DNA from: Candidatus Omnitrophota bacterium
GTDB taxonomy: Bacteria > Omnitrophota > Gorgyraeia > Zapsychrales > Zapsychraceae
Assembly: GCA_035292445.1 (NCBI GenBank)
Contig: DATDQB010000020.1
Location: 155,484 to 219,483 of the forward strand
Direction of reading: 5' to 3'
Length of the DNA stretch: 64,000 nucleotides
The first letter of the stretch is position 1. Each line of letters opens with the position of its first letter. Under the pieces are notes generated by a model. The model saw only the letters and a list, made by a program, of their open reading frames with translations, was not told the origin of the DNA and searched no databases. Shown one piece after another: positions 3,501-57,742 of this stretch. A program made the position numbers and the translations under genes.

Positions 3501-5615
3501 GCACTGATCGGCATCAAGCAAATCAAGATCACGGCACTCCTGCGGTTTGTCAACACAGCTAAAACATGACAGGCCTTCTTTGGTTTTATCGGCTTTCTTA
3601 CATTCTTTCGATTCCTCTGTGCATAAATCACAAAATTCCTCGTCGAAAAACCCGATATCGGCGCAGGTCTGCGGCCGCTCCACGCAGGAATAACACAGCT
3701 CGCCTCCTTCAGTGCTCTTATCGGCCTTGCATTCTTTCTTCTTGTCTGCTTCACAGGAAGAGCAGCCACCCCTGGAAATTAACCCGAGGTCTTCGCATTC
3801 CTGCGGCCTTTGGACGCATTCAAAACATGGCGTGCCTTCCTTTGTTTTCTTCTTGGGCCGGCATTCGCTTCTAGGCTTTTGGGCACACTCCTGGCAGGCA
3901 GCTTCATCCGAAAGCCCCAGGTCAGAACATGTTTCAGGACGGTCCTCACACTCAAAACATGGCTTACCTTCTTTGGTCACTTTATCTTTGACGCATTGCT
4001 TCTTTCGGTTACGCTCGCAAGAAGCGCAATCTTTTTCATCCAACAAATTGAGTTCAGCGCATTCTTGGGATTTCTCAGCGCAAACGTAACACTGTTTGCC
4101 TTCTTTGGTCTTCTGATCCTGACGGCATTCGGTCTTTTTGTTGCGATCGCACGCGGGGCAATCGCCTTTATCGAGCAAGCCTAAATCGACACATTCCTGC
4201 GGCTTATCGACACAGGCAAAGCATTGTTTGTCCTCTTTGGTAGATTCCGCTTGTTTGCACTCTTTGCGCGGGTTTTGTTCGCACGAAACACCGCAATCTT
4301 TCTTATCAAGAAGCCCGATATCGACACATTCCTGCGGCTTATCCACACAAGTAAAACATGGCTTGCCTTCTTTGGTTTTCTGGGCCTCCTTGCACTCGCT
4401 TCTGTTATCTTCTTCGCATTGGGCGCAACCCTTTTGATCAAAAAAGCCGATATCTATGCATTCCTGGGGCCTGTCAACGCAGGCAAAACATGGCTTGCCT
4501 TCTTTGGTTTGCTTGGACGCTTCGCATATCTTCTTGGGATTTTGAGTACAAACAGCGCAATCTTTTTCATCGAGCAACTTCAGGTCAACACACTCCTGCG
4601 GCTTATCGATGCATTTAAAGCACGAGACCCCCTCTTTTATGTTTCTTAAAGGAACACATTGCTTGGAAGGGTCTTTGGCGCAGGATGGGCATTCTTTTTC
4701 GTCGATCAAATCAAGGTCGGCGCATGTTTCGGAGCGCGACACGCACGCGTAACATTGCCTGCCTTCCTTGGTCTGCTGGGCCGGCTGGCATTCCATCTTG
4801 AGATCGCTCGAACACTGCCGGCAATCCTTTCTCTCCAATAAACCAATGTCGGGACACTCTTGCTCTTGCTCCAGGCATTTATAACACTGTTTGCCAGTCT
4901 TTGTTTTCTTGATCTCAACGCACTGTTTATGGCGTGCAATGTTGCAGGCGTCGCATTCTTTCTTATCGATCAAACGCATATCGGCGCATTCGTTGGTGCG
5001 CAAGACGCATTCGAAACATTCCGTGCCGTCTTCCGCTGTTTCTTTCACGACGCATTCCATGAACGGATTGACATTGCAGGCCTTGCATTCGGAGATGGTG
5101 AGCAAACCGAGCTCTTTACAGACGGGTGGTTTCGACTCGCATTGAAAACAGGAATCTCCGTCAATGGTCTTGCGGACAAAAACGCATTCACCGTAAGGGA
5201 TCTTCTGGCACTCGGAGCATTGCCCTTTATCCAGAAGCTTTATTTCGCGGCATTGTTGGCGGCGCTGCAGGCATTCATAGCATTGTTCACCGCTTTTGGT
5301 CTTTAAACTGGGCTGGCAGACGTTTTTGGGGACGTCTTCACATTGACCGCAGTCTTCTCGTTTGATGAGGCCGACTTCTCGGCACGTTTGGGGGGCAGGC
5401 AGCGGGGAAACTTTAGGTTGTCCAAGAGTTTGGCGGGAGGTGGCCAAAGTATCTATTGGGAGTTTCTCCCGCTGCACAAGTGTCGATACGCTATTATTTT
5501 CAAGTTGCTGGAGCGCCTGTGGCCCCGTGGCTGCTCCAGATCTGTCTTCAGCTATTAAAGAGAAAGATATCAGTGAGCAAATAAAAACGACCGCCGCCAA
5601 TTTCGATATCTTCAT
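570..5615 (-). CDS. Giant secreted cysteine-rich tandem-repeat protein (1681 aa). It has an N-terminal signal peptide followed by about 35 copies of a 44-aa repeat with six Cys each. Function unknown.
   Basis: One uninterrupted 5-kb ORF. The N-terminus MKISKLAAVVFICSLISFSLIA is signal-peptide-like. The repeat consensus is roughly PQxCxDLGLLDxxxCxxCxxxxxxxCxxxxKTKEGxxCFxCVDKPQ, repeated throughout. Opposite-strand ORFs in this span are repeat artefacts. Confidence 0.8.
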   Translation of the reverse strand: MKISKLAAVVFICSLISFSLIAEDRSGAATGPQALQQLENNSVSTLVQREKLPIDTLATSRQTLGQPKVSPLPAPQTCREVGLIKREDCGQCEDVPKNVCQPSLKTKSGEQCYECLQRRQQCREIKLLDKGQCSECQKIPYGECVFVRKTIDGDSCFQCESKPPVCKELGLLTISECKACNVNPFMECVVKETAEDGTECFECVLRTNECADMRLIDKKECDACNIARHKQCVEIKKTKTGKQCYKCLEQEQECPDIGLLERKDCRQCSSDLKMECQPAQQTKEGRQCYACVSRSETCADLDLIDEKECPSCAKDPSKQCVPLRNIKEGVSCFKCIDKPQECVDLKLLDEKDCAVCTQNPKKICEASKQTKEGKPCFACVDRPQECIDIGFFDQKGCAQCEEDNRSECKEAQKTKEGKPCFTCVDKPQECVDIGLLDKKDCGVSCEQNPRKECKQAESTKEDKQCFACVDKPQECVDLGLLDKGDCPACDRNKKTECRQDQKTKEGKQCYVCAEKSQECAELNLLDEKDCASCERNRKKQCVKDKVTKEGKPCFECEDRPETCSDLGLSDEAACQECAQKPRSECRPKKKTKEGTPCFECVQRPQECEDLGLISRGGCSSCEADKKKECKADKSTEGGELCYSCVERPQTCADIGFFDEEFCDLCTEESKECKKADKTKEGLSCFSCVDKPQECRDLDLLDADQCAECVKDPSKECLAGKKTKEGKACFRCLDKLQTCADLNLLDEPGCKLCGEDPNKECKPDKKTKQGLACFVCLDKPQTCTDIGQLEKASCEGCLQKPNTECNEGNKTKEGRQCFVCTEKPQSCDDFGLISIDECKKCERDSKKRCVISQRTKEGMQCYSCELRPQECADLDLLNEAQCQECTSDPAKICQADKITNEGEQCFVCADKPQSCSDLGLIDANQCIGCVEAGKECKPDKKTEEGEACFSCIDKPQTCVDLEQLDERDCRLCNRNSKTECKEGNKTKEGAQCFICVDKPQECRDLDLIDETQCESCVAKGNAECQPAQPTKEGKQCFSCVEKPQTCVDLGLISEGDCASCTQDPKKQCASSRRTKEGQQCFSCEDRPQVCADLGLVEADACVQCESDPKKECVIAQKTNEGEQCFSCADRPQTCADLEQLDERECRLCNRNSKTECKEGNKTKEGLPCFVCVDKPQECKDLDLIDETQCGSCTSKGNFECQPAQQTKEGKQCYGCVERPQTCADLQLLDEAGCGNCSTDAKKECQSAKKTKQGMQCFSCVDRPQTCGDLAQLDEAGCRDCEANARAECKFGDKTKEGKQCFVCIEKPQTCADLELLDERECRLCNRNSKTECREDKQTKEGTQCYACVEKLVEKEQSCQDIGQLSDEECRQCETNARTECKLGDKTKQGGQCYVCLEKPQQCQDLGLLNETECRLCNENPRKECQPAQPTKEGQPCYSCVDKPQACADLNQLDEAQCAQCAQDPKMQCQPGQKTNEGKQCFNCVEKPQICQDLGLITAADCVACQAVASKKCVTAQATNQGQQCYSCVEIPQTCADLGLLSEQECAPCNQKPDSQCAHAGQTKQGEPCYTCAVRQEACADLGALSKSECDNSCLASANKECVEAQKTKQGETCYQCAEKKQEAPKRPVTIELGDAECLDEGYARDCSACKAEENCEEVGLILFHPSRKSPILKCYECVPPGK
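755..5375. repeat. Tandem array of about 132-bp (44-codon) direct repeats inside the Cys-rich gene.
   Basis: Periodic recurrence of motifs such as caaacaaaacattg / ttctttggtct / gcattcggtcttgg at about 132-bp spacing on the plus strand. This corresponds to the protein-level repeats. Confidence 0.8.
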
Positions 5616-5668
5616 TGCCCTTCCTTAACTTATTCGTAATCAAGAAAATAAAACTCATTACTCTATAC

Positions 5669-7759
5669 TCACATTCTACTTAAAATATCCTTTGTTTCAA
5701 GTGTTTCAAACGGAATCTCTTTGGGAATGCTCACCGTCAATTTAATTTGGCCAGTGGCCATTAACTCTTCCGACTCGATTTTCATGTAACTCGAAAGCTC
5801 AGCGGCATCTACACCCAACTCAAACGCTAATTCCTTTTGCGCCTCCTCAAGCGTCAGCTTGCGGGCCATGGCATATTTGATCTTATCCGAGGCGCTGACC
5901 ATCTCAAGGGGCTTGGAAATCTTGGTTAAATAAATACGGTTTTCCTGAACTCCCTTTTGCGCCCTGAAATTAAAAACCCCCACCTGATCCAAACCATAAT
6001 TGGCCACATAAATCTTCCCGTTGGCGACCGTTACGCTGGAAAGGCTAGGAAAATAACTGGGTCCCTGGCCGTTGGAGCCGAAATCCATCACCAATTCGCC
6101 GTTGGGATCAATGATCGTCACTTTGTGCCGGCCCCGATCCGCCACGTACAGATAATCATGCTCATCAATGCTTAGATCAACAGGGTCTTCAAATTGTATT
6201 TCCTGGTCCAACAACCCGCCGATCTGGCGGATGAATTCGCCGCCTTTGGTGAAGATCTGGATGCGCCTGTTCCTGCTGTCCAAAACAAATAACCGATCTC
6301 TTGAATCAAAAGCGACCGTTTTAGGGCTTAAGAACGTCCCCGGCGACGGGCCGGCCTCGTTCATTCTTTCTGATTTCTCTCCGAAAGCTTTCAGGTAAAT
6401 ACCGTCTTCGCTGAAGATCTGAATGCGGTTGTTCTTGCTGTCAGCGACATAGATGTTCCCCTGGCTGTCCGCGGCAACCCCGCCCAACGCGTTGAATTCA
6501 CCGGCTTGATCACCGCGCTTACCGAAAAAATAGGTCGGATTCCCTTCCTGGTCCAGAAGCTGAAGCCGATGATTCCCTGTGTCGGCGACCAAAATCCTTC
6601 CTCTGGGATCCACCTCAATGGATCCCGGCCGTTTCAATTGATGTAAATTCTCGTTCAATGGCTGGAACGTTAAATGGGCCGGGTCCTTGATAAGGATTTC
6701 TCCCCGCTTCTCGGCTAAAGCATAAAGCCCTTTTTGCTCGTCATAATTAAGATCAACAACGCTGGGACCGGCATCAATCGAACGATCATAATCAAGAAGG
6801 GGCGGTAAATAGACCGCTGGCTCAAGATTGCCCTTAGGGCTTCCTGTGATCTCCAATACCTGAACGCGCCGATTCCTGGCATCCGCCACATAAACATGAC
6901 CCGTCCGATCCGCCGTGATCCCCGATGGCCAGTTAAACTGTCCTTTACCGTCCCCTTGAGATCCGAAAGAAAACAATAACTTCTTGTTTTGATCGATCTT
7001 TTTGACGCTGTGCGAATCCGTCTCGATCAAATAAATATCCCCTCGCATGTCAACGGAAATACCCGCCGAGCTGGAAATAAGGTCCTTCCCCTCCGCCTTG
7101 AGAGTGATCTGTTCATATTCATATGTCTTCAAATTAAATTTAATGATACGCCCGATGCCCGGCATAAGGACGTAAAGATGCTCGTTAAGATCGAAAACCA
7201 AATCCGTCGGCTTAAAGCTTAACCGTCGGTAATCCAGAAATGCCCCGTTGGGGGAAAACTTGGAAATGGTCTTATTGGTGCTGTCGCCGATATAGATGTT
7301 TCCGATGTTATCAATGGCAATGCTGTCGGGCGATTTAAACTGCCCTTCGTCCTTCCCGTAATGGCCCAGCTGAAAGACAAATTCGCCTTGAGGGCCGAAG
7401 ACCTGCACGCGGCTATTGCCGGTATCCGCTACAACCACGTTTCCCGTTAATGTTAAAGCGACCGCTTTAGGCTGATTGAACTCACCGATATTCGAACCTC
7501 TTTGGCCGAAAGAACTTTTTAATTCCCCCTGTGGATTAAAGACGGATACCTTTGCCTGCTTTCGATCCAGCACATAAATGTCGCCGCTGTCATTGACCGC
7601 GGCATCAATAGGCTCCTGCAGGCCTTCCGTTAATTCCCGTACAAACTTGACCTCTTCAAGCGCCCACGAATCCTGAACATTCAGACCGATAAGACCAATC
7701 GTGAAGGCCAGCAGGAACGAATAGTTTCGGAATATTTTCCTTTGTTTCATAAACCCCAC
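5669..7759 (-). CDS. NHL-repeat beta-propeller protein (about 12 NHL blades) with an N-terminal signal peptide and a C-terminal non-repeat domain.
   Basis: Repeated GxxGxxxGQFxxPxGIAxDxxGxIYVADxxNxRIQxF-type blades (e.g. GQFNWPSGITADRTGHVYVADARNRRVQVL). The N-terminus is hydrophobic. A GGGGTGGGG ribosome-binding site lies 4 nt upstream of the ATG. The gap to the downstream Cys-rich gene is 53 bp, which suggests an operon. Confidence 0.85.
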   Translation of the reverse strand: MGFMKQRKIFRNYSFLLAFTIGLIGLNVQDSWALEEVKFVRELTEGLQEPIDAAVNDSGDIYVLDRKQAKVSVFNPQGELKSSFGQRGSNIGEFNQPKAVALTLTGNVVVADTGNSRVQVFGPQGEFVFQLGHYGKDEGQFKSPDSIAIDNIGNIYIGDSTNKTISKFSPNGAFLDYRRLSFKPTDLVFDLNEHLYVLMPGIGRIIKFNLKTYEYEQITLKAEGKDLISSSAGISVDMRGDIYLIETDSHSVKKIDQNKKLLFSFGSQGDGKGQFNWPSGITADRTGHVYVADARNRRVQVLEITGSPKGNLEPAVYLPPLLDYDRSIDAGPSVVDLNYDEQKGLYALAEKRGEILIKDPAHLTFQPLNENLHQLKRPGSIEVDPRGRILVADTGNHRLQLLDQEGNPTYFFGKRGDQAGEFNALGGVAADSQGNIYVADSKNNRIQIFSEDGIYLKAFGEKSERMNEAGPSPGTFLSPKTVAFDSRDRLFVLDSRNRRIQIFTKGGEFIRQIGGLLDQEIQFEDPVDLSIDEHDYLYVADRGRHKVTIIDPNGELVMDFGSNGQGPSYFPSLSSVTVANGKIYVANYGLDQVGVFNFRAQKGVQENRIYLTKISKPLEMVSASDKIKYAMARKLTLEEAQKELAFELGVDAAELSSYMKIESEELMATGQIKLTVSIPKEIPFETLETKDILSRM

Positions 7760-8475: not shown

Positions 8476-9534
8476 TTGTTCTCTAAAATAACGATATATA
8501 TGGATAATAATATTGATAAAGAGAGACGATTTCAGACCGTTTGCCTGCTCATTTTAAGCATCATCGCGATCGCCTTCGCTTTATACTGGTTAAAACCGAT
8601 GATGATCCCTTTCGTCTTGGCCCTTTTCTTCAGCCTTATCCTGACCTCATTGATCGACTTCCAAATAAAATATTTCAAGGTCCCCCGTTTCCTGGCGCTT
8701 ACAACGACCCTTATTATCGGGATTTTGATCTTGATCACCCTGGGGCTTTTGATCTCCGTTTCCGTCACCCAGATGCTGGTCAATTTCGATTCCTACCAGG
8801 AAAAGGTCTTTCAACTTCTTAACAAAGCCGCCCTCTCTCTTAATGTGGAGCGTTTTGGGATGAACCCTCAGGAAATATTGGATCCTTTAAAAAATAATCT
8901 GACTAAAAGTGTCGGGGGAATGGTGATCGGCATCGTCAATTCGATCGTTAAGCTTCTTTCGCAGGGGCTCCTTGTCCTTATCTTTGTCTGCTTTCTTCTT
9001 TTGGGAAAAACGATCCAGACGAAACCGCCCGGCAAAGAATGGAAAGAAGGCGTGTATCGGGTAAAACGCTTCATCGCGACCAAAATGGCCGTTTCCATCG
9101 TTACCGGAGTTTTGGTGGGGGCGGCGCTGATGATCTTAGGAGTTGATATGGCGCTGGCCTTCGGGTTGTTCGCCTTTATCCTTAATTTCATCCCCAGCAT
9201 CGGCTCGACCATCGCCACCCTTCTTCCCTTACCGGTTGTCCTCATCAATCCCGACATCACGCCTTTGACAGGGTTTCTCGCGATCGCTATTCCCGGTGTA
9301 ATTCAATTTGTAATTAGCAATTTCGTTGAACCTAAAGTGGAAGGTGATGCGCTGGAGCTGCATCCGGTGGCGGTCTTGATGGCGTTGATCTTTTGGGGAA
9401 TGATCTGGGGGATCGTGGGGATGTTCCTGGCCTCTCCCCTAACGGCCATCATGAAGATCATCTTTCAACGCATTGAATTTACCGTTCCCCTGGCCCACCT
9501 TCTTGCCGGGCGCGTTGACGATATCCAATCATAA
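8476..9534 (+). CDS. AI-2E family transporter (PerM / YhhT-like permease).
   Basis: 352-aa polytopic membrane protein with the typical AI-2E architecture (N-terminal TM pair, central loop, C-terminal TM cluster). The true start may be the internal Met at about 8500. Confidence 0.7.
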   Translation: MFSKITIYMDNNIDKERRFQTVCLLILSIIAIAFALYWLKPMMIPFVLALFFSLILTSLIDFQIKYFKVPRFLALTTTLIIGILILITLGLLISVSVTQMLVNFDSYQEKVFQLLNKAALSLNVERFGMNPQEILDPLKNNLTKSVGGMVIGIVNSIVKLLSQGLLVLIFVCFLLLGKTIQTKPPGKEWKEGVYRVKRFIATKMAVSIVTGVLVGAALMILGVDMALAFGLFAFILNFIPSIGSTIATLLPLPVVLINPDITPLTGFLAIAIPGVIQFVISNFVEPKVEGDALELHPVAVLMALIFWGMIWGIVGMFLASPLTAIMKIIFQRIEFTVPLAHLLAGRVDDIQS

Positions 9535-16915: not shown

Positions 16916-17563
16916 TTACAAACTTTCCTCCTGGGGTACCCCTCGTAGCCGCTCCAAATGCATGACCATGATATTGGCCCAGATGCCTAAGACCTCTTTG
17001 GTGTGCCCCCATTTGGTGAGCCCCTTGGTGTAATTAAGCTTTTTCCCTTTCCTCGCGTCAATAAAGGCCAACACCCTCTCGCCGGTCAGGGAATCGACCA
17101 GTTCCGCCTCCAAGGAAGCGCCGCCGATGCCGGCGCCGATCAGGGTCGTGGACCAATGAAGATTAAGGTACACTTTATTGGGCAACACATCAGTCACCGC
17201 CGTCCTTAAAAGAAGCACGCCTTCTCCCGCTTCAGTTGTGATCGTATAATTTTCCTTAAGCCCGTCTTCCAGTTCCTTGTAAAAATAATCCGTCAATTTC
17301 TGCCGGTCTTCACCCTTCATCTGATGCGCCTCGACACTGGGATCTAACTTAAATTCAACCGGGGCAATGATGACCTTAGAGTAACCCTGCGCGATATTCG
17401 CGTTGGGATTCGTATATATATACATCCCTTTCGATTCCTCGTCTTCCTCCAACCCCGAGTAATCGCTTAAAAATCCTGTTTCTGTACGTTTCATTTCTAC
17501 GGTCGCACAGCCCGTCAAAACCATAAAAACAATACAATGGATAAACAAAAACCTCTTATTCAT
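16916..17563 (-). CDS. Hypothetical lipoprotein.
   Basis: Signal peptide with lipobox VLTGC. 215 aa. Confidence 0.6.
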   Translation of the reverse strand: MNKRFLFIHCIVFMVLTGCATVEMKRTETGFLSDYSGLEEDEESKGMYIYTNPNANIAQGYSKVIIAPVEFKLDPSVEAHQMKGEDRQKLTDYFYKELEDGLKENYTITTEAGEGVLLLRTAVTDVLPNKVYLNLHWSTTLIGAGIGGASLEAELVDSLTGERVLAFIDARKGKKLNYTKGLTKWGHTKEVLGIWANIMVMHLERLRGVPQEESL

Positions 17564-17589
17564 TTAATTTTCCTTTCTTATCGAGCGTT

Positions 17590-17655
17590 TAGATTAAAAA
17601 ATGACACACGTGTCCGGTGATGATCCCCAGATACGTCCCTACAATATTACCAATC
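17590..17655 (-). pseudogene. Displaced 3'-terminal fragment of the DUF819 gene (about 21 codons).
   Basis: Minus-strand translation IGNIVGTYLGIITGHVCHFLI-stop. This closely matches the current C-terminus of the 18386..19555 gene (LGGIIGTYLGLLVGQICHLIAG-stop), and the DNA is about 70% identical over roughly 55 bp. Confidence 0.55.
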
Positions 17656-18400
17656 ATACAACTTTGATATCATTTAATTTGAAATTATCTTTAAACTTTT
17701 TAACTAATAATACTGTGATTCATTTGAGGTTTACGCTTGGCATCCGCAGTTGTTAAATAACGGACTATCGTAATTTTAACCATTTCTGAAAATCGGGTCA
17801 TAGTTATTTTAATATCTCGAACTCCGCTGCGCCGACCACGATGACCTCGACCTATAGACAAAACACTACCCTCATCAATCCTTATTAACTCAGCTCTATG
17901 CATAAATCCATCACGCATATCTACCAGCGTCTTAAGCTTAGAAAAAGAATTTTTAATAATTCTTTCTTTTGTTCCTCTATAAATAACAATATTATCTAAC
18001 AATTCTTGCTTATCTGCGTTTGATAAATTATTGAGTAAAAAAGTAACAATTAATGGCTTGGGCACAGATTTTCTTTTTCCATTACTAATTTTTCTTTTTT
18101 CTTTTTTAGCGTTGCCTAATAAAGCCTCCATGGCAGCGATACAAGCTAAAAATCGAAATTGACTAGTTGGGGCTGAACACTTCCTACAATTACGATCATT
18201 TATATAAACATGAAATATGAAACCTATTTTAAAGATTAAAGCCTTTTCTAATTTGTTTAAATCATCAATATTTTTTCCAAAATCCTTGAACAAAGAGGAA
18301 AATTCTTTCAAGACAATTTTCTTTTTACTGTTTTGAAAATTTTTGCTGGCGTAGTATCTAAGATGAGATGGGATGTACATAAAATTTACCCTGCGATTAA
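17656..18400. mobile_element. AT-rich insertion of about 0.75 kb, integrated at the 3' end of the DUF819 gene. It carries a single orphan gene.
   Basis: Base composition drops sharply (long A/T runs) relative to the flanks. It is bounded by two versions of the same gene 3' end (17590-17655 and 18386-18450). No integrase or transposase is present. Confidence 0.45.
17700..18379 (-). CDS. Orphan hypothetical protein (about 226 aa) carried by the AT-rich insert.
   Basis: ORF in AT-rich DNA (MYIPSHLRYYASKNFQNSKKK...). An alternative start, MSLNRR, at 18406 has an AGGAC ribosome-binding site. The longer 17700..18812 ORF runs into the DUF819 gene in another frame and is rejected. Confidence 0.5.
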
Positions 18401-19555
18401 GTGACATATCTGTCCTACCAACAGTCCCAGGTAGGTCCCTATGATACCACCCAAGATGGCCAACAGCAATCCGACCGAAGCCAGCCCCGGCTGGTACACC
18501 TCCGCCACGATCGGAGCGGAGGCCACCCCGCCGATATTGGCCTGGCTGGCGACCGCGACCAAGAACAAAGGAGCGCGGATCAGCCGGGCCACGCCGATGA
18601 GGACCGCCAGATGAATAAAGACGATCAGAAATCCGGCAACGATCAAGATAAGCGCTGAGCCGATATGGGCTAAACTCGCCTTGGCGCCGATGGAGGTTAA
18701 CACGAAATACAAAAGAAAGTAGCCGATGCGCGTAGAGCCGTATTCTTCCAATCTTCTGGCCGGCGTGAATGAAAACAAAAGCCCTAGCACGGATACAAGG
18801 ATGATCGTCCACGCGTACATTGAAATGACATCTTTGACCTCCGGCAACAGGCGGGCGGCGCTGGTTGCCGCAAAGCCACCCAGGAAAGCAAATATCAAGA
18901 TAAAAATCGTGACAAAGAAATGATTTTTTTCTTTTCGCACGCTCATCATCCCCTTGATCCTTCGAGTAAGATCTTCCAGCACCTGGCGGTCACAGCGGTT
19001 CCAGCGGTCATAAATGGGTTGAAGCCCAACCAACGCGACCAGCGTTCCCATCCAAATATAGGGAACGATGGTGTCCACGATCACCATCGGCAGGAAAACT
19101 TGATCCGGGGTGCCCAAAGCTTCTTTGACGGCGATCATATTCGCGCTTCCCCCTGTCCACGAGCCCGAAAGCGCGCCAAAGCCGGACCACATCTGTGTTC
19201 CCACCACATCCTTAAAAAGAACAAAAACAACGACCGTCCCCAGCATGATCCCGAAACTCCCTGCCAACATCATCGCCAGCGCCGAGGGGCCTAATTTAAA
19301 GATCGCCTTAACATCAACGCAAAGTAAAAGTAAGAACAAACTCGCCGGCAGGAAATTCTTGGAAATAACGCCGTAAACACTTGCTTGGCTGTCAATAAAT
19401 CCCATCGTTGAGGTGACCATCGGCAAAAAATAGATCCAGAAAACCGCCGGCAGGAACTTAAAGAATCTTTTATAATGTGGATGACCGGACAAATAAAGGA
19501 TCATGATCTCGATCAACAAAAGAACGCCCACGATGCCTAAAGGATGTTTGATCAT
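18386..19555 (-). CDS. DUF819-like polytopic membrane protein.
   Basis: 389-aa protein with about 10 TM helices. Last gene of the peptide-recycling operon. Its 3' end has a displaced paralogous copy 0.8 kb downstream. Confidence 0.6.
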   Translation of the reverse strand: MIKHPLGIVGVLLLIEIMILYLSGHPHYKRFFKFLPAVFWIYFLPMVTSTMGFIDSQASVYGVISKNFLPASLFLLLLCVDVKAIFKLGPSALAMMLAGSFGIMLGTVVVFVLFKDVVGTQMWSGFGALSGSWTGGSANMIAVKEALGTPDQVFLPMVIVDTIVPYIWMGTLVALVGLQPIYDRWNRCDRQVLEDLTRRIKGMMSVRKEKNHFFVTIFILIFAFLGGFAATSAARLLPEVKDVISMYAWTIILVSVLGLLFSFTPARRLEEYGSTRIGYFLLYFVLTSIGAKASLAHIGSALILIVAGFLIVFIHLAVLIGVARLIRAPLFLVAVASQANIGGVASAPIVAEVYQPGLASVGLLLAILGGIIGTYLGLLVGQICHLIAG

Positions 19556-20634
19556 AGGCCCTGAAGGATGATCCCCACTCCCGCCTTCACTTTTCTTAAA
19601 TCATATTGGCCATCGGAACTTAAATAAGAATTACCTTTTAATCCGCCCTTGATAAAAAATGGCGTATCCAGGTCGATGTAATCAAAACACCCCAAACCGG
19701 CAGCCAGGTGCGCGGAGGCAGTCATGGCCAAAGACGTTTCCATCATCCCGCCGATCATGAGCTTTATGCCGCTCGCCCGGGCGAGCCGGGCGATCTTGCA
19801 AGCGTGCACGATGCCGCATTTCATGATTTTAATGTTAATGACGGGAACTAACTTTTGTTTTATGATTTTTCTGGCGTCGTCCATCGTACGCACGCTTTCA
19901 TCCGCGCAAACGGGAATGGTTGTCGAACGGGAAATCCTTTTAAGCCCCTCCCAATCGTCTTTGGGCACCGGCTGCTCAAGTAGATCGATCTTGATCTTTC
20001 CCTTTTCCAATAATTTCAAAAATTTCAACATCTCATCAGCCGTATATCCCTGGTTGGCATCCAGATAAATACGGCTTCTAGGGGCCGATCGTTTAACGAT
20101 CTCAAGGCGTTTGAAATCAAGGTCCATGTCCCTGCCGATCTTGACCTTAAAGGCCCGGAATCCCTGACGAAAATATTTCTTAACCGAACTTTCCGTTTCC
20201 TTAAGGCCTGCCAGCACGATCGTTATATCACTGGTGAGCTTATGGCAGCGCCGGCCGAAAAACCGCCATAAAGGCATCCTCTCCTGACGGGTCAAGGCAT
20301 CGAGCAAGGCCGTTTCAATAGCGGCAATGGCACAGGGATTGGAAGAAAGGATTTGATGAAAACGCTGCGATATTTCTTCCACCCTTGCCGGCGATTCGCC
20401 CAATAATTGTTTTTTGATACGCTCTAAATTGTCGAGGGTCTGCCGCAGTGTTTCGCCGGTGATGTGTGTGGCAACAGCGGCCTCGCCCCAGCCTTTGGTC
20501 TTATCTTCCAATTCGATGCCGAATAAAATATTTTCGAGATAATCATGGGTACCCAACGCCGTGCGGAAAGGCTGGTTAAGTTCGGCCTTGAGAATTTGGA
20601 CAGAAATGTTCTTGATCCGATGGCGCGCGCTCAA
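19552..20634 (-). CDS. Dipeptide epimerase of the enolase superfamily (L-Ala-D/L-Glu epimerase, YkfB-like).
   Basis: MR/MLE-type N-terminal capping domain and barrel (KVKIGRD..., DANQGYT..., metal-binding D/E residues). It overlaps its neighbours by 4 bp. Confidence 0.75.
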   Translation of the reverse strand: MSARHRIKNISVQILKAELNQPFRTALGTHDYLENILFGIELEDKTKGWGEAAVATHITGETLRQTLDNLERIKKQLLGESPARVEEISQRFHQILSSNPCAIAAIETALLDALTRQERMPLWRFFGRRCHKLTSDITIVLAGLKETESSVKKYFRQGFRAFKVKIGRDMDLDFKRLEIVKRSAPRSRIYLDANQGYTADEMLKFLKLLEKGKIKIDLLEQPVPKDDWEGLKRISRSTTIPVCADESVRTMDDARKIIKQKLVPVINIKIMKCGIVHACKIARLARASGIKLMIGGMMETSLAMTASAHLAAGLGCFDYIDLDTPFFIKGGLKGNSYLSSDGQYDLRKVKAGVGIILQGL

Positions 20635-21986
20635 TTTTTTATCTCAACAACGGCCGCCAAACGCCGCAACAATGAGCCTTTCTTTGAGCCCTCGCCTAAA
20701 AAAAGATCACTGACCACTACCCTGTTTAGAACGCGGATGACATCTTCATCCTGTGAAGGTTCGCGATAACCCCAAACGGAATGAATGGCATATGGATGTT
20801 CATCCACTGTTCCTAAATACAACATGATATGGCCTTTCATGGGAAGAATGACGCTTGCTCCTGGGATGTTTCCCAAGATATCGATCTTTTGATGTGCATC
20901 CACCGTTTCATCAAACCGGGCCAGCGCCCTTCCAACCTGGGCCTGATTTTTGGAATCGCGCGTTAGATTTATCCCGACGGTCGCAAAAACTTCCTGCAGA
21001 AACCTTGAACAATCTTGTTCACCATACATATCACCCCATCCGTAGGGCTTATTCAACAGCTTAAACGCCTGTTCAAAAATAGTGCGCGGTGTATGTGGCA
21101 AAAATTTATCAGAGGCCTGAGATTTTTTTATATAAGCCGTCCTTAGTTCCATCATTCCCTCGCTTGTCGGCGCGGGGATCAAAACGGCATATACCAACTT
21201 ATCGGCTTTTTTGGCCAACGGCAATATCACTCCCATGCGTACATGGTCGTAATGCTGGGTCAAGGCCTCATCAAGGTAAATATCCGCTGTCGCATCGGTA
21301 ACGACAATAAATTTACGCATAGAAATATACTGCTTAAACTGCTGGCGGGAACACAGGGCGATCGTATCAGCGGGCACCCAACCGTCGCTTAACGCAGAGA
21401 CCGCATAGAGCCAGCGCCGATCGGCACTTCGATGAAGAACAATGACAGGTATGCCGATATCAAGGCCGCTGTTTTGAAGCTCATCAAAATCAATGTCTAA
21501 CGGCTTAGCATACAAACCCAGGTCCGTCGGCAAAAACCGCTGGTCGGCGAAACGGGTAACCACCCCATATTCGACAGGAATCTTCTTGGCGATTGTATCT
21601 ACTGCCGTTTCCGCCATCATCTCATCAAAAAAACGCTCCGGAGCCGCTTGGCCATCATCCATGAAAAGCCCTCGCGCTTTCAACTCGAGAACCTTCGTCG
21701 CCAATTGCTCCTTAAGGGCCGGGCCATCATAAAACTGAGGAAACTTCTTCAGGTCTTTGGTCAGTCCCAACACCTCTTGGTTATGGCGGTTAAAATCGTT
21801 GATGGCCTGCTCATTCATGATGAGTTGGTCGGGGTCAGGATGGCGGCTGATCCAATAGCCGGCCGTTTTCATCTCGCGTGTCACGCCGGGAAGTTCACTG
21901 GGCGCGCTGTAGTAAAGCTGCTCGTGATCGGCGAACGATTGATTACTTAAAAGTATCAAGCAGATAATGAGTGGAATGTATTTCAT
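20631..21986 (-). CDS. NlpC/P60-family peptidoglycan peptidase with an N-terminal extracytoplasmic domain (YkfC-like gamma-D-Glu-diamino-acid endopeptidase).
   Basis: Signal peptide. C-terminal papain-like motif YGWGDMYGEQDCSRFLQEVF ... GHIMLYLG (Cys/His). Confidence 0.7.
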   Translation of the reverse strand: MKYIPLIICLILLSNQSFADHEQLYYSAPSELPGVTREMKTAGYWISRHPDPDQLIMNEQAINDFNRHNQEVLGLTKDLKKFPQFYDGPALKEQLATKVLELKARGLFMDDGQAAPERFFDEMMAETAVDTIAKKIPVEYGVVTRFADQRFLPTDLGLYAKPLDIDFDELQNSGLDIGIPVIVLHRSADRRWLYAVSALSDGWVPADTIALCSRQQFKQYISMRKFIVVTDATADIYLDEALTQHYDHVRMGVILPLAKKADKLVYAVLIPAPTSEGMMELRTAYIKKSQASDKFLPHTPRTIFEQAFKLLNKPYGWGDMYGEQDCSRFLQEVFATVGINLTRDSKNQAQVGRALARFDETVDAHQKIDILGNIPGASVILPMKGHIMLYLGTVDEHPYAIHSVWGYREPSQDEDVIRVLNRVVVSDLFLGEGSKKGSLLRRLAAVVEIKN

Positions 21987-22669
21987 GGATCCCCTAAAAC
22001 AATTACAGGATGTTTCGCCCCATCAAGCCATTTCAACAGCCGTTTGACATTCCGTTGCGAGAGCGCCACGCAGCCGGCGGTTGAGCTGTCCGCGCCGCGC
22101 CAGACATGCAGGAATATCGCGGAGCCGTTCCCTGCAACAACCGGGCGCGTATTATATTCGATCACCGCTGCGTATTTGTAAAGATGGTCATCGCGCTTTA
22201 AGCGTTCAAATGAATTTACTTGAGGCGTTCCTTTGACCCAAGTATTGTATTGTTCGGAAGCCGGATCATCGACCCAGAAATCATCAACTCCGACTTGAGC
22301 GTACGCGAGCTTCGTATTAACGGCCGCCGGATAACCGAACGCCCTTTCCAATCGAAAGAGGCCGGATGGCGTACGGCCGTCGCCCTCTCTTTTTTCACCC
22401 GCGCTCGCCAAGCCGTTTCTTCCAATGACCGAATTCATTGAAGGGAACACAGCCTCCCAGCCGTTTTCCCCGCGTTGCCATGCGCTCACTTTCGCTTTCG
22501 TCTGATGCTGTGGGTCGGCCTCGACAACCACCGCTTGTTGAATATCTGTTTCTAATGAACCTAAAACATTTGCCGGAGGCAAGGGTGTGGCGCATCCGCC
22601 GAGGCATAAAAGAAAGACCACAATGAACGTGTTATGAGTTTTCATTCGCTGGCAACCACTTGGGGCCAC
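21983..22669 (-). CDS. L,D-transpeptidase (YkuD domain) lipoprotein.
   Basis: Lipobox LLCLGGC. Catalytic motif HVWRGADSSTAGCVAL. Confidence 0.75.
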   Translation of the reverse strand: MAPSGCQRMKTHNTFIVVFLLCLGGCATPLPPANVLGSLETDIQQAVVVEADPQHQTKAKVSAWQRGENGWEAVFPSMNSVIGRNGLASAGEKREGDGRTPSGLFRLERAFGYPAAVNTKLAYAQVGVDDFWVDDPASEQYNTWVKGTPQVNSFERLKRDDHLYKYAAVIEYNTRPVVAGNGSAIFLHVWRGADSSTAGCVALSQRNVKRLLKWLDGAKHPVIVLGDP

Positions 22670-23867
22670 CGAGAAGGCGGGCGACCATCATGCTGGAGAC
22701 GTTGTCACCAACGGCATTGACCATCGTGGCCGGCGGGTCGACTAATACGCCTATCATTGAAATAAGCGGCAAAGCTTCTATCGGAAAACCGTATAACGTA
22801 ACGATCAAAATCTCCCCCAAGAATCCGCCGGAAGGGATACCGCTCATCACGGTCCCGCTTAATAGGGCGACACCGATAGCGGTAAGTAAGACGGCGGGGC
22901 TGGAAAAATCCATTTGATAAAGGCCGAACAATAAAGCGATCTTCAATATAGCTGACAGGCACGAGCCTTCCATGTGAATGGTCGCGCCTATTGGGATCAC
23001 CACTTCTCTTATATCTTCAGGGATCCCGATTTTTTTAGCGGCCTCCAAACTCGTCGGGATGGTCGCCACACTGCTACCGGTCGCCAACGCCGTCAAAGAA
23101 GCCGGGATAATGTTCTTCCAAAATCTTTTGATCCCTTCTTGCCCGGCGGCCAAGAACGCGTACAACGAGAACGCGGCTATAAAATAAAAGAAGGCGAGCG
23201 GGTAATACACTTTCATCGCCCGCAGGTACGAACCGAACAGCTCCGGCCCGAACACGCCCACCAGATAGGCAAAATACGCGCCTAAACCAACAGGGGCATA
23301 ATACATGATATACCCGATGACTTTCCCCATGACCTCGTTACCGCTCATAAGAAATTGCGTGAACGCCCTTCCCTTGTCCCCGGCATGGGAAGCGCCAAGG
23401 CCGATCAAAAGAGAAAAAATGATCAACGCCAGCATATTCTTCTTGGATAAAAGGTCCCCGAAATCGGAAACGGTAAAAGCCTTAACGATCTGCGCTGAAA
23501 CATTGACCGCTTCGGGCTCTGTTACCGATGGCATGTCAACACCGATCCCCTGCGCCGGCGGATAAACCTTGACGGCGATGACCATCAGGATGGATGAGAT
23601 GATGCCGGTTACGATAAAAATGAGCATCATGGCCGATAGGATCTTTCCCAGCCGCTTGCCGCTGCTCATCGAAGCAACGGCTGAGGAAATGGAGAAAAAA
23701 ACCAGCGGGACAACGCTCGTAAAAAGTAAATTAAGGAAAATGTCGCCGAAAGGCTTGAAAAAAACCGCCCTCTCTTTAAGGGCAAGCCCCGTGACCGATC
23801 CGATAACGAGCGACAAGAGCAGAATGAGGGAAAACCGATAACTTTTAAGCGGGGATGTTTTTGCCAT
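22632..23867 (-). CDS. Dicarboxylate/amino acid:cation symporter (DAACS / GltP family).
   Basis: 411-aa membrane protein with the characteristic re-entrant-loop regions (GSSVATIP, NxDG-like region near the C-terminus). Confidence 0.75.
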   Translation of the reverse strand: MAKTSPLKSYRFSLILLLSLVIGSVTGLALKERAVFFKPFGDIFLNLLFTSVVPLVFFSISSAVASMSSGKRLGKILSAMMLIFIVTGIISSILMVIAVKVYPPAQGIGVDMPSVTEPEAVNVSAQIVKAFTVSDFGDLLSKKNMLALIIFSLLIGLGASHAGDKGRAFTQFLMSGNEVMGKVIGYIMYYAPVGLGAYFAYLVGVFGPELFGSYLRAMKVYYPLAFFYFIAAFSLYAFLAAGQEGIKRFWKNIIPASLTALATGSSVATIPTSLEAAKKIGIPEDIREVVIPIGATIHMEGSCLSAILKIALLFGLYQMDFSSPAVLLTAIGVALLSGTVMSGIPSGGFLGEILIVTLYGFPIEALPLISMIGVLVDPPATMVNAVGDNVSSMMVARLLGGPKWLPANENS

Positions 23868-34415: not shown

Positions 34416-34511
34416 ATCATGCTTGGTGGCATTTTGGTTTCCCTAAATTTATGGTAACCAAAATACCACTTAAACTCGGGTTCGCCCTATGGGCTCACCC
34501 TCGTATTTAAG

Positions 34512-34901
34512 TGGAGGTGCCGGGAATCGAACCCGGGTCCTCAAGTAACTTTCTAAAAGCCTCTACATGCTTAGACTGTTTTTAAGTTTCGTCCTGATTT
34601 TCTAAACAGACAAACGGACCAGGACCAGCCTTTAGGATCTCGCCCACATGAATAAGGCGTTCATATGAGCCAGCCTGCCAATGACCTTATTGCCCGCTCA
34701 CAGGCTAAGCAAGCATAAGGGCGCTGCGCTATTAGGCAGCGACTGTTTCGCCAGCGAAAATCGGGTTAACGATTTCGTTAGCTTGGGCTAAGATTGAATC
34801 TTCGCCGTTTAATTGGTGCTTGGGCTGATTAACGAGGCCAACCAAGCGTCCTCGGCATGCCACTGATAGTCCATCGACTCAAGTCGAGACCGATCACCCC
34901 C
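34512..34901 (-). ncRNA. ssrA: tmRNA (SsrA), one-piece, about 390 nt. The 3' CCA is not encoded.
   Basis: 5' GGGGGUGAUCGGUCUCGAC... and 3' ...GGACCCGGGUUCGAUUCCCGGCACCUCCA form the tRNA-like domain. Internal GCAUGCCGAGG and UUGGCCUCG elements are present. The tag ORF ...GCU AAC GAA AUC GUU AAC CCG AUU UUC GCU GGC GAA ACA GUC GCU GCC UAA UAG gives (A)NEIVNPIFAGETVAA followed by two stops. Confidence 0.9.
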
Positions 34902-34957: not shown

Positions 34958-35620
34958 TTAATTCGCCTTCATGACCTTCTTGATCTTAAACGACTCGACT
35001 TCTAACACGCCATCTTTATTCTTGACTCTAAAGTCAACGATTAACGTTTCAGCGCTTTCGAGGTCTTTGAACGTGGCTTCGGCAAGGCTAAGGATCCCGA
35101 AATGCCTGATCTCCTTGCTTAACTCAACCAACTCCAGCCTCCTCATGATCTGTTTATCGGGATCAAAAAGCTGGAAATTCTCGGTGAATTTCGACTGCTG
35201 CGTAACGTAATCCGTCATCACCTGGCGGATCTCCTCATCGGTGTAATTCTCTTTTTTCTTAACCTTTTCTTCCGGCGCCTCGATCTTGGCGATCACCCAC
35301 TCGTTGACCACCGATTGACCGGCTTTCTTAACGATCTTGGCTTCCAACGTCACGATGCTACCGGTCGCGATATCCCGGAACTTAACCGGAACGACCGCTT
35401 CGTCGCCTTTCTGTTGAAGAAGGCCATTCTCGATCGACAGCATCCTTAGATTCAAGACCTTTCTGGTCGAATCATCGTACAGATCAAAAGTGCCGACGAG
35501 CTTTGTCCTTTTATTAAGGTCGTTCTGGATAACCTCCGTGTATGATGGGCCATCCGCAACCGCTGGATGCACCGCTAATAGTAATGCTATGAAAAACGCG
35601 TGTAACGTAATACTTCTCAT
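34958..35620 (-). CDS. Hypothetical exported protein, lying between ssrA and smpB.
   Basis: Signal peptide MRSITLHAFFIALLLAVHPAVA. No recognisable domain. Confidence 0.5.
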   Translation of the reverse strand: MRSITLHAFFIALLLAVHPAVADGPSYTEVIQNDLNKRTKLVGTFDLYDDSTRKVLNLRMLSIENGLLQQKGDEAVVPVKFRDIATGSIVTLEAKIVKKAGQSVVNEWVIAKIEAPEEKVKKKENYTDEEIRQVMTDYVTQQSKFTENFQLFDPDKQIMRRLELVELSKEIRHFGILSLAEATFKDLESAETLIVDFRVKNKDGVLEVESFKIKKVMKAN

Positions 35621-35630
35621 GATGCCCTCC

Positions 35631-36101
35631 CTAAGATCTCCTTTGACTGGCCTTTCCCTGGCGAAGCGCGCGACCAATATCCCGCTCAATACTTCTTTTC
35701 TTGATCGTTTCCCTCTTATCATGGAGCTTTTTGCCTTTGCCTAAAGCCAACTCGATCTTGACCATCCCGCGGCTGCTAAAATATATCTTGGTCGGCACCA
35801 GCGCGAACTTTCGCTGGAGCACAAAGCCCCCGATCCTTTCAATTTCCCTTTTATGCAATAGAAGCTTACGGGGCCTGTCAGGAGCGAGCAGCTGATGGCC
35901 GGCCTGAGCGTAGGGTTCAATATGAAGATTATAAAGATAAACTTCGCCTTTTTCAACCCTGGCAAAGGCGTCCTTAAAATTCACTTCTCCTGCCCGTATG
36001 GATTTGACCTCGCTGCCGTTCAAGGCAACGCCGCATTCCCATTTATCGGTAAGGAAAAAATCACGGAATGCCTTTTTATTCGTTGCGATTGATTCTGCCA
36101 T
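35631..36101 (-). CDS. smpB: SsrA-binding protein SmpB.
   Basis: Typical SmpB sequence (IATNKKA..DF....E.GV.L.G.EVKS...G...L.D....) and a basic C-terminal tail. 156 aa. Confidence 0.9.
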   Translation of the reverse strand: MAESIATNKKAFRDFFLTDKWECGVALNGSEVKSIRAGEVNFKDAFARVEKGEVYLYNLHIEPYAQAGHQLLAPDRPRKLLLHKREIERIGGFVLQRKFALVPTKIYFSSRGMVKIELALGKGKKLHDKRETIKKRSIERDIGRALRQGKASQRRS

Positions 36102-36216: not shown

Positions 36217-36231
36217 GTGAGAAATCTACTT

Positions 36232-36313
36232 GCGGAAGTGGTGGAATTGGTAGACACGCAGGTCTCAGAAGCCTGTGCTTCACGGCATGAGAGTTCAAGT
36301 CTCTCCTTCCGCA
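36232..36313 (+). tRNA. tRNA-Leu (anticodon CAG), type II with a long variable arm.
   Basis: Acceptor GCGGAAG/CUUCCGC plus discriminator A. Anticodon stem CAGGU/GCCUG with loop CUCAGAA. T arm GAGAG-UUCAAGU-CUCUC. Confidence 0.9.
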
Positions 36314-36428
36314 TTTATCATTTCAGATAAAGGAAATTTTCTTGCAACTTCCCGCAAAGCATACTAGAATGTTGGGACAATTTTAAGAATATTAAAATAA
36401 TATTAATAATTATTAATAATACCTGCCT

Positions 36429-42366: not shown

Positions 42367-42553
42367 TTGGTTATAAGTTGTAAGTTATAAGTAGTAAGTT
42401 AAAAGAAAAACAGAAAAAAACAAACAAACAAAAAAAACGATATTCATATTTTGAATATCGTTTTTTTCTTTCTTTATTCTTTATTTATTTTTTCTTTCTT
42501 TTTTGCTTTTAAGCTTTTACTTATAACCTATGACTTATTACTTATGACTCTTT
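42367..42553. repeat. Intergenic low-complexity long inverted repeat (TAAGT/ACTTA tandem motifs) around a central bidirectional terminator hairpin.
   Basis: gttataagttgtaagttataagtagtaagtt ... acgatattcatattttgaatatcgt flanked by A- and T-runs ... aagcttttacttataacctatgacttattacttatgac. Confidence 0.6.
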
Positions 42554-42925
42554 CTAAATCTCTTTCCCTATCGCCAACTTGACCACCTGGCGCACTTCAT
42601 CCATTTCAAAAGGTTTCTTCAGGCATGTGATCGCCCCCAATTCCATGGCGCGATGGCGCTTCTCATCCACCGAATAACCGCTCATCATGACAACCGGCAG
42701 GTCGGGAGCGACCTCTCTGATCTTTTCCAATACCGACACCCCATCGGGTTCCGGCATGACGATATCGATAAAAACAATATCAAACTTCTCTTTCTTGACC
42801 AATTGGACCGCCTCTTCGCCGTCCTGGACGATCTTGATGTCATGGCCCTTATAGCCCAAGGTGACCCCGAAAAGGTCCCCGATCACCCGTTTATCATCCA
42901 CGACCAATGCTTTTATTTTATCCAT
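42554..42925 (-). CDS. Single-domain response regulator (receiver only).
   Basis: KALVVDD ... IVFIDIVMPEPDG ... receiver fold. 123 aa. Confidence 0.8.
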   Translation of the reverse strand: MDKIKALVVDDKRVIGDLFGVTLGYKGHDIKIVQDGEEAVQLVKKEKFDIVFIDIVMPEPDGVSVLEKIREVAPDLPVVMMSGYSVDEKRHRAMELGAITCLKKPFEMDEVRQVVKLAIGKEI

Positions 42926-56757: not shown

Positions 56758-57144
56758 TTATAACGCCTTAAACAACCCCTCCACAAACTGAAGATACTCG
56801 CTGGCCTCTTTTTTGGCGATCAGCATATCGGCATTATACATATCCCGATTACGGCTTTTGCGCATCCTTTCGCCGACAACCAACACATCCTGCGAACCCA
56901 AGATCTCGCTTAACGCCTCGATGATCTTCTTATGATGCCCCGGACGACTTTTGACGCGGTAACCTTCCTTCGCCAGATAATAGATCCCTATCATAATAAG
57001 CGCCATATAGGAAAAGTGAAAGACCACCTCCGGCTCCCCATGGCGGCCGGCAATATCCAGATTCCGCTTCGCCGATTTGCGATACTTTCCCAGTTGGGCC
57101 TGCGTAAATTTCTGGCTTATAAAAAAATCCTTATCAAATGTCAT
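56758..57144 (-). CDS. HEPN-domain protein, the putative toxin of a HEPN/MNT pair.
   Basis: Rx4H motif (RPGHHKK). 128 aa. Overlaps the upstream MNT gene by 4 bp. Confidence 0.65.
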   Translation of the reverse strand: MTFDKDFFISQKFTQAQLGKYRKSAKRNLDIAGRHGEPEVVFHFSYMALIMIGIYYLAKEGYRVKSRPGHHKKIIEALSEILGSQDVLVVGERMRKSRNRDMYNADMLIAKKEASEYLQFVEGLFKAL

Positions 57145-57686: not shown

Positions 57687-57742
57687 AATGGTCTTTCTTA
57701 ACCATGATTATGGTATAAATATACCATAACAGAAAAAACCTG

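Follow-up and report, generated by a model that had tools for sequence, protein, structure and literature searches.

How can a foreign gene come to lie inside the 3' end of a conserved gene without damage to that gene or to the operon around it? The question is raised by a 64,000-nucleotide (nt) stretch of contig DATDQB010000020.1 from a Candidatus Omnitrophota bacterium, referred to here as the window, meaning the whole stretch of DNA that was analysed. In the window, a gene for a DUF819 membrane protein is followed by AT-rich DNA holding a single orphan open reading frame (ORF), and then by a second copy of the DUF819 C-terminus. The original prediction for this locus proposed a single-gene insertion that had given the DUF819 gene a replacement end and left a displaced, paralogous end behind. 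Our results point to a type of event already known, here on a small scale and without an integrase; the cargo probably represents a new HEPN family. The features studied all lie on the minus strand and are listed here in the direction of reading.

18386-19555 (-): DUF819 membrane-protein gene, the target gene, 389 amino acids; Pfam DUF819, E=6.5e-90, profile positions 17-376 of 379
18386-18457 (-): attached terminus (term A), attL-like; ILGGIIGTYLG, then LLVGQICHLIAG and stop; left half apparently native-type, right half apparently foreign-type
18425-18439 (-): core GGGACCTACCTGGGA in the attached copy, covering the G-T-Y-L-G codons, by direct sequence reading
17700-18380 (-): cargo, a 226-amino-acid orphan gene; predicted stand-alone HEPN-like RNase with R156-x4-H161
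17658-17699 (-): AT-rich spacer of 42 nt, belonging to the inserted DNA, that separates the cargo stop from the displaced terminus; GC 0.13-0.20 in 30-nt windows
17589-17657 (-): displaced terminus (term B), attR-like; MIGNIVGTYLG, then IITGHVCHFLI and stop; left half apparently foreign-type, right half apparently native-type
17625-17639 (-): core GGGACGTATCTGGGG of the displaced terminus, separated by 800 nt from its counterpart in term A
16916-17588 (-): native downstream stretch; a 25-nt intergenic sequence with ribosome-binding site AAAGGAAAA, then the DUF3313 lipoprotein gene at 16916-17563

The two gene ends and the DNA between them

The displaced copy is a true DUF819 C-terminus. The DUF819 gene closes with the residues ILGGIIGTYLGLLVGQICHLIAG and a stop, and 800 nt downstream lies a 22-codon mini-ORF, MIGNIVGTYLGIITGHVCHFLI (ATG at 17655-17657, stop TAA at 17589-17591), which aligns codon for codon with the DUF819 end ILGGIIGTYLGLLVGQICHL over 20 shared codons. 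A tblastn search of the window with the DUF819 protein recovered the copy at E=4e-4, and at E=1.6e-6 when the last 40 residues served as query. With a profile made from the C-termini of 119 DUF819 homologues, query excluded, the copy scored E=6.9e-10, whilst the next best of all six-frame window peptides scored 0.14. The copy had been predicted about 0.8 kilobases (kb) downstream at 17590-17655; the distance stands but the extent is 17589-17657.

At the DNA level the two ends are identical at 38/60 positions (63%), below the 70% or so first estimated, and their similarity is significant at the protein level only. Ten of the 20 shared residues are identical. At the remaining ten, most replacements are conservative (L/I, I/V, V/T, Q/H, L/F), G/N and I/M being the exceptions. 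Because the differences are conservative and fall codon by codon, both ends appear to have evolved as working DUF819 termini, and not through decay of one of them. The longest exact DNA run between them is TAGGGAC, and CTGGG is also exact. With the attached terminus the DUF819 protein is 389 amino acids long, matching homologues of mostly 385-392 amino acids. The attached end is thus a replacement terminus that keeps the gene full length, as had been proposed.

Between the two ends, the 226-amino-acid orphan ORF was confirmed at 17700-18380. Its start lies 5 nt past the DUF819 stop, and it probably shares a transcript with the host operon. The ORF list also held a 370-amino-acid frame at 17700-18812 (GTG at 18812), which is the orphan frame running back across the DUF819 end. 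Its start at 18812 was rejected as a spurious upstream extension; homologues begin at MYIPSHL, so the true start is the ATG at 18380.

The composition of this DNA differs strongly from that of its surroundings. The orphan gene has a GC content of 0.319, and of 0.256 at third codon positions (GC3), compared with GC 0.48-0.51 and GC3 0.53-0.64 in neighbouring genes. Across the window, mean GC in 400-nt windows is 0.493 (standard deviation 0.043) and the minimum, 0.2875, falls at the insert. We also assembled a related set of 80 species-level loci with a DUF819 homologue, taking a 6 kb flank per locus, and none of the 80 carries the orphan gene. Genomes that do hold orphan homologues have 33-38% GC. 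The low GC3, the window GC minimum, the absence from related loci and the low GC of the homologue genomes establish that the insert is foreign to the host genome. Together with the paired gene-end copies, these GC values bear out an AT-rich single-gene insertion in the DUF819 3' end.

Downstream, the stop of the displaced terminus directly abuts the intergenic stretch before the DUF3313 lipoprotein gene (Pfam DUF3313, E=4.2e-36). Four metagenome contigs from separate assemblies, matching the window at 99.97-100% identity, all show the whole arrangement, which is therefore not an assembly artefact.

Mixed ancestry of the ends and a model of insertion

To place the two ends, a neighbour-joining tree was built from the query and the 119 DUF819 homologues with their tails removed. 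The window DUF819 is sister to P0007 (70% identity) within a clade of 14 members. In the left half of the tail, 13/13 other clade members have GG, against 0/106 homologues outside the clade; for GN the counts are 0/13 and 106/106. In the right half, 8/13 other clade members have TGH, against 0/106 homologues outside, and for VGQ the counts are 0/13 and 13/106. The attached end combines GG with VGQ, and the displaced end GN with TGH. Log-odds of in-clade versus outside origin are +4.35 (left) and -2.95 (right) for the attached end, and -3.33 (left) and +1.22 (right) for the displaced end. These values give a likelihood ratio of about 65 against term A being wholly native and term B wholly foreign, and of about 2000 against term B being wholly native.

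On these clade-specific tail characters and half-wise log-odds, few as the characters are, the attached and displaced ends are to all appearance reciprocal chimeras, with the hybrid make-up of an attL/attR pair. The original prediction had taken the two ends for paralogues and the displaced one for the old end. The latter does lie before the native intergenic region and the ribosome-binding site of the DUF3313 gene, but it does not seem to be simply the old end, and the clade-specific residues speak against paralogues. The crossover would fall between the G/N and T/V codons, an interval that holds the G-T-Y-L-G codons. Since the native end would combine the attached left half with the displaced right half, the expected empty site changes from the 17590-17655 version to ILGGIIGTYLG-IITGHVCHFLI and stop.

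We consider it reasonably probable that about 0.8 kb of foreign low-GC DNA with a HEPN-type cargo entered the DUF819 3' end via one reciprocal, Campbell-type crossover. The incoming DNA would have been a circular molecule of about 800 nt carrying a mimic of the DUF819 3' end of about 69 nt ((M)IGNIVGTYLG-LLVGQICHLIAG and stop), one gene and the 42-nt spacer. With the crossover in or next to the G-T-Y-L-G codons (TAGGGACsTAyCTGGG), the DUF819 gene would have kept its own sequence up to that point and continued into the element terminus, remaining full length. The last 11 native codons, the stop, the intergenic region and the DUF3313 gene would have been shifted 800 nt downstream, and the left arm of the element would now precede the displaced native codons. 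Before insertion the native end would have read as in the corrected empty site; the model predicts ...GGTGGTATCATAGGGACNTAYCTGGGGATCATCACCGGACACGTG... at the empty-site junction and ...AAAGTTGTATGATTGGTAATATTGTAGGGACNTAYCTGGGACTGTTGGTAGGACAG... at the circular (attP) junction.

A single in-register crossover of this kind would yield the duplication, the reciprocal chimeras, the intact 389-amino-acid gene and a stop abutting the DUF3313 intergenic region. The recombinase may have been encoded by the element and then lost, or supplied in trans, or short-homology illegitimate recombination may have been filtered by selection for an intact gene. Ordinary homologous recombination is disfavoured because the exact shared core is too short, at 7 nt. 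The locus would then be a clean, small example of a foreign gene added inside a conserved gene end without damage to gene or operon, with clade-specific residues alone sufficing to map its crossover, in a phylum represented solely by metagenomes.

The closest parallel is the 3' end of icd in E. coli, where e14 or phage 21 provides a substitute terminus, the gene stays functional and an icdC pseudogene is displaced (PMC13626634, citing Hill et al. 1989). As far as that account describes the system, the likeness lies in an insert within a protein-coding gene's 3' end, a substitute terminus that differs largely by conservative or synonymous changes, an original C-terminal fragment at the far end of the insert, and two ends that are reciprocal hybrids. 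The window insert likewise has a 3'-end direct repeat at both borders and a target gene kept full length on the element terminus. By contrast, e14 is 15 kb long, with its own integrase and SOS-induced excision, whereas the window insert is 0.8 kb with one gene, an exact core as short as that given above and no documented excision or empty site. An element-encoded tyrosine or serine recombinase next to att was not found in the insert, its flanks or the window ORFs tested. By analogy, the insert may work like an e14-type integration; because the element-encoded integrase is missing, no element-family membership is claimed.

Other DUF819 gene ends and competing explanations

Scanning the 80 related loci with the tail profile revealed three further DUF819-end remnants, each on the same strand as, and downstream of, an intact gene.

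L053, Omnitrophota, 2232-2356 and 3759-3883: 125-nt repeats about 90% identical, 1.5 kb apart; cargo, an SLT-domain protein and a lipoprotein
L010, Omnitrophota, 7116-7173 and 9102-9161: remnant VGTYFGIITGQLCHWAGQL and stop; cargo of 1.9 kb, two small membrane proteins and a NUDIX hydrolase
L047, Pelobacter sp., 5493-7194: 76-nt repeats, 72/76 identical; cargo, an NTP_transf_8 nucleotidyltransferase and a small partner

These three loci are each known from single contigs of metagenome-assembled genomes. In L010, homology of the remnant begins exactly at the core GGGACGTA, with a shared core of 17/18 nt. No recombinase lies between gene end and remnant in L053, L010 or L047. Counting the window, DUF819-end remnants occur in 4/81 species-level loci, in Omnitrophota and Desulfuromonadota, with different cargo each time. 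A search for recombinases downstream of DUF819, by motif regular expressions and a pooled Pfam scan of 122 ORF clusters, gave no recurrent family among the commonest families listed, and no integrase-bearing insertion was seen at any DUF819 end.

L036 and L039, close relatives of L047 (91-96% DNA identity), have neither its cargo nor its remnant. Because L036, L039 and L047 hold different genes there, the spot downstream of DUF819 in Geobacteraceae/Pelobacter is a variable hotspot. In both L036 (7100-8500) and L039 (7100-9800), a secreted protein of 232-254 amino acids is encoded downstream of DUF819, and L039 also has a RhuM/Fic gene.

It is a doubtful suggestion that the DUF819 3' end is a recurrent docking site for integrase-less cassettes of 0.8-1.9 kb, each of which would bring its own copy of the gene's final 16-38 codons and cross over at G-T-Y-[LF]-G. 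If true, this would mean that a recombinase acts in trans, as for integron cassettes and Xer-exploiting elements, or that cassettes are captured by an undescribed mechanism with a host gene end serving for attachment. The recurrence is the aspect of the locus that could prove more unusual, and it raises the question of gene ends as attachment sites for recombinase-free cassettes.

Cis-mobilisable elements (CIMEs) offer a second comparison. They are defined as att-flanked, devoid of integration and transfer genes, and mobilised only by a recombinase acting in trans (PMC5704250). Like them, the window insert is flanked by repeats of the target-gene end and has no integrase or transfer genes, and because a recombinase is absent it formally corresponds to a CIME. 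However, described CIMEs derive from integrative and conjugative or integrative and mobilisable elements with known integrases and have near-identical att cores, whereas no parental element, cognate integrase or accretion partner is known for the window insert, and the four DUF819 cases are all tiny.

A number of observations weigh against a Campbell-type insertion by an element. The exact core shared by the two ends is only 7 nt long, and their DNA similarity gave a local alignment score at or below the 95th percentile of shuffled sequences. No recombinase domain was found in the insert, in about 6 kb of either flank or in the other window ORFs tested, and all four DUF819-end cases lack an integrase. 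No empty site was found among the collections searched, the four source contigs being essentially identical, nor was a free or circular form found. An exact search of Joint Genome Institute (JGI) metagenome contigs with the right half of the displaced terminus returned no match, the source contig included. L047 is not a clean Campbell product either, its cargo being separated from the gene end by 289 nt of native DNA.

Further points against it concern the chimeras themselves, which are read from a handful of residues in a variable tail. TGQ is the tail form in 4/13 other clade members, and in three of these, the P0032 subclade, the tail LITGQLCRWIAGGG matches the right half of term A at 7/12 positions. 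The P0032 locus has no DUF819-end remnant despite this term A-like tail, and P0032-type tails were on that account ruled out as element-borne. The GC3 of the four half-termini, tried as a test of native against foreign origin, was 0.45-0.55 throughout and gave no separation; the segments are too short for it to be informative.

Two other leads at the junction were followed. The G-T-Y-L-G core was ruled out as the best-conserved DNA; across the family it is simply the final conserved segment ahead of the variable tail. Shared motifs, hairpins, promoters, terminators and RNAs were sought at the locus, with nothing convincing.

These results also qualify two earlier expectations. Comparison with related genomes confirmed that the orphan gene is not universally conserved but produced no empty-site variant. 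The claim of an integrase-free remnant holds insofar as no recombinase was found, but a decayed remnant fits less well; simple decay of integrase-bearing elements is disfavoured because the three other cases also lack a recombinase. An integrase-bearing ancestor is thus an assumption and not a finding.

Chief among the alternatives, though we think it unlikely, is one-sided homology-facilitated illegitimate recombination. A linear donor made of a DUF819 3' part and the cargo, anchored through its DUF819 homology, would have joined its far end illegitimately inside the recipient 3' end, duplicating that end. The displaced copy would be wholly native (LGNIVGTYLGIITGHVCHFLI and stop if uninterrupted) and the attached tail foreign from an upstream crossover onwards. 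Such recombination, like hotspots flanked by core genes, places foreign genes beside a conserved gene without an element recombinase, in line with the absence of a recombinase in all four cases, the variable hotspot in Geobacteraceae and the differing content of L036, L039 and L047. The left boundaries of the remnants differ by about 20 codons, as for independent imprecise joins, and the L010 remnant starts abruptly at the core, without a foreign left arm. The window copy is harder to accommodate. Its left half carries GN, seen in no other clade member, and differs from the attached copy at 7/18 nt, whilst its right half is of clean clade type. Neutral decay this uneven is unlikely, as the likelihood ratio of about 2000 reflects. 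The duplication would also need an illegitimate join upstream of the crossover, which is topologically awkward for a linear fragment. Homology-facilitated illegitimate recombination usually gives replacement or deletion, and not an in-register duplication with reciprocal chimeras.

It is improbable, too, that the attached terminus is all native, its uninterrupted end being GTYLGLLVGQICHLIAG and stop, and that a linear fragment with the orphan and a scrap of donor DUF819 inserted illegitimately after the native stop. Tails vary within the clade, that of P0032 resembling term A with no remnant at its locus, and the DNA identity between the two copies is low, all of which would suit this explanation. 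The fragment, however, must start no more than 5 nt from the native stop and end exactly at the scrap's own stop, abutting the intergenic region. Moreover, a scrap combining GN with TGH has a counterpart in 0/119 homologues, and the likelihood ratio of about 65 counts against it.

We regard it as very unlikely that a tandem DUF819 paralogue, mostly deleted or overwritten when the AT-rich gene arrived, survives only as the displaced copy. The conservative, codon-wise divergence is what two once-functional genes would show, but tandem DUF819 genes occur in 0/80 related loci, where there are short 3' fragments only, and the reciprocal chimeras and the exact DUF3313 abutment would be left unexplained. 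A chance match or assembly artefact is scarcely credible: the DNA similarity is indeed not above the shuffle control, but the profile match, the four identical contigs and the position, frame and orientation of a gene end all contradict it.

The cargo protein and the surrounding genes

The cargo had been described as having no recognisable motif. No family reaches its threshold, in keeping with that description, but an alignment of its relatives revealed a signature. The orphan family comprises five clusters at 90% identity, with 19 representatives among 1.84 billion proteins, and no relatives were found in viral, plasmid, phage or JGI metagenome contig collections. In the 19-member alignment G89, R156, H161, L165 and Y208 are invariant, and conservation is at least 90% at Y59, E85, F114, R162 and P218. 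Written as a motif this gives R-[N/D/H]-x3-H-R, with N, D or H at position 157 across the 19 sequences. In HEPN domains, helix 3 ends in an Rx4-6H motif whose R is followed by N, D or H, helix 2 bears a conserved acidic residue, and inserts between helices 2 and 3 are frequent (PMC3710099). The cargo family has the Rx4-6H motif.

An AlphaFold model (m4cc29890f968) built on the 19-sequence alignment reached a predicted local distance difference test score (pLDDT) of 87.6 and a predicted template modelling score (pTM) of 0.86. Its predicted helices span 43-61, 69-88 (with E85), 145-161 (R156 to H161 at its end) and 194-210, with a beta-rich insert at 89-144. The motif, the acidic residue and the insert are thus placed in the model as in HEPN domains. 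The best structural neighbours of the model are HEPN proteins; a Foldseek search against the PDB and a PDB sequence profile returned nothing.

Searches against known families gave fainter signals. The only recurrent Pfam matches were HEPN_Apea and RiboL-PSP-HEPN, each in 2/19 members and both below threshold (HEPN_Apea at best E=0.0026 and 18.6 bits versus a cut-off of 24.4; RiboL-PSP-HEPN at 0.004). Checked residue by residue, the HEPN_Apea match in P0131 falls at the R-x4-H motif. No significant match to a curated HEPN family was obtained for the cargo family. With the orphan alone, Pfam, PADLOC and PHROGs yielded nothing usable, and PADLOC and NCBIfam on the 19 members gave nothing. The remote-homology and structure searches thus supplied a HEPN-type signature but no HEPN family over threshold.

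The genes adjoining orphan homologues include restriction-modification genes, Vsr, RadC, a serine recombinase, a MazG-like gene and a Schlafen-like helicase; no conserved partner gene was seen. The model and motif make it likely that the cargo belongs to the HEPN superfamily. Given the R-x4-H signature, the modelled fold and the defence-gene neighbourhoods, it is probably a stand-alone, metal-independent HEPN RNase that serves as toxin or abortive-infection effector. The motif, model and neighbours fit the earlier idea of a defence or abortive-infection candidate. An uncharacterised and extremely rare family is thereby flagged as a probable stand-alone HEPN RNase, and its member here as a candidate new toxin or abortive-infection gene.

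With known HEPN toxins (HEPN-MNT, AbiV, RnlA/LsoA, Csm6, Apea-like, RiboL-PSP) the predicted protein shares R-[N/D/H]-x3-H at the end of a core helix, an acidic residue in the preceding helix, an insert between two core helices, and homologues in defence or mobile-element neighbourhoods. It differs from them in having no MNT or other conserved partner, in its beta-rich insert and N-terminal extension, and in the extreme rarity of its family.

We also considered whether the family travels as a cassette that always targets gene ends. This was ruled out, since homologues occur in five other contexts without flanking repeats at the DNA or protein level. One homologue, P0002 (gene GC 0.345), also appears to lie between higher-GC flanks at 1-118 and 818-942 of L008, a contig of 942 nt. 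It may be a second AT-rich single-gene insertion of the orphan family, on a contig too short to judge.

Elsewhere in the window, at about 56768-57696 (-) (L090 3674-4602), an NTP_transf_2/Polbeta nucleotidyltransferase gene overlaps a 128-amino-acid gene without a significant family match, following a class-I tRNA synthetase gene. By analogy, the pair looks like an MNT-type toxin-antitoxin layout. An hhalign comparison of the orphan with a local 128-amino-acid protein was uninformative.

The DUF819 gene closes a conserved run of YkuD, NlpC/P60-SH3, L-Ala-D/L-Glu epimerase and DUF819 genes, and the epimerase lies directly upstream of DUF819 in 72/80 related loci. Its epimerase, NlpC/P60-SH3 and YkuD neighbours point to DUF819 as a putative membrane transporter in cell-wall peptide recycling. 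Downstream, 0/80 related loci have DUF3313 after DUF819, though the upstream genes are shared. Genes for a YkuD L,D-transpeptidase and an SDF-family transporter are also found near DUF819 (window 18386-23867 (-)), and an NlpC/P60-SH3 peptidase is frequent in loci L009-L088.

Three minor observations concern the wider window. The 11-nt sequence AAATTAAATGA (minus strand) forms an exact direct repeat, with one copy at 17560-17570, at the DUF3313 start codon, and the other at 17670-17680, just upstream of the displaced terminus; the two copies bracket a 110-nt unit, possibly by chance given the AT-rich DNA. About 16 kb from the insert are a tmRNA gene (34511-34901 (-)), with a 254-amino-acid ORF without a Pfam match beside it (34958-35722 (-)), and a tRNA-Leu(CAG) gene (36231-36314 (+)); no integrase was seen near these RNA genes. 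The only other low-GC patch in the window (0.355), at 42201-42700, is a convergent intergenic region between dihydrolipoamide dehydrogenase and response-regulator genes.

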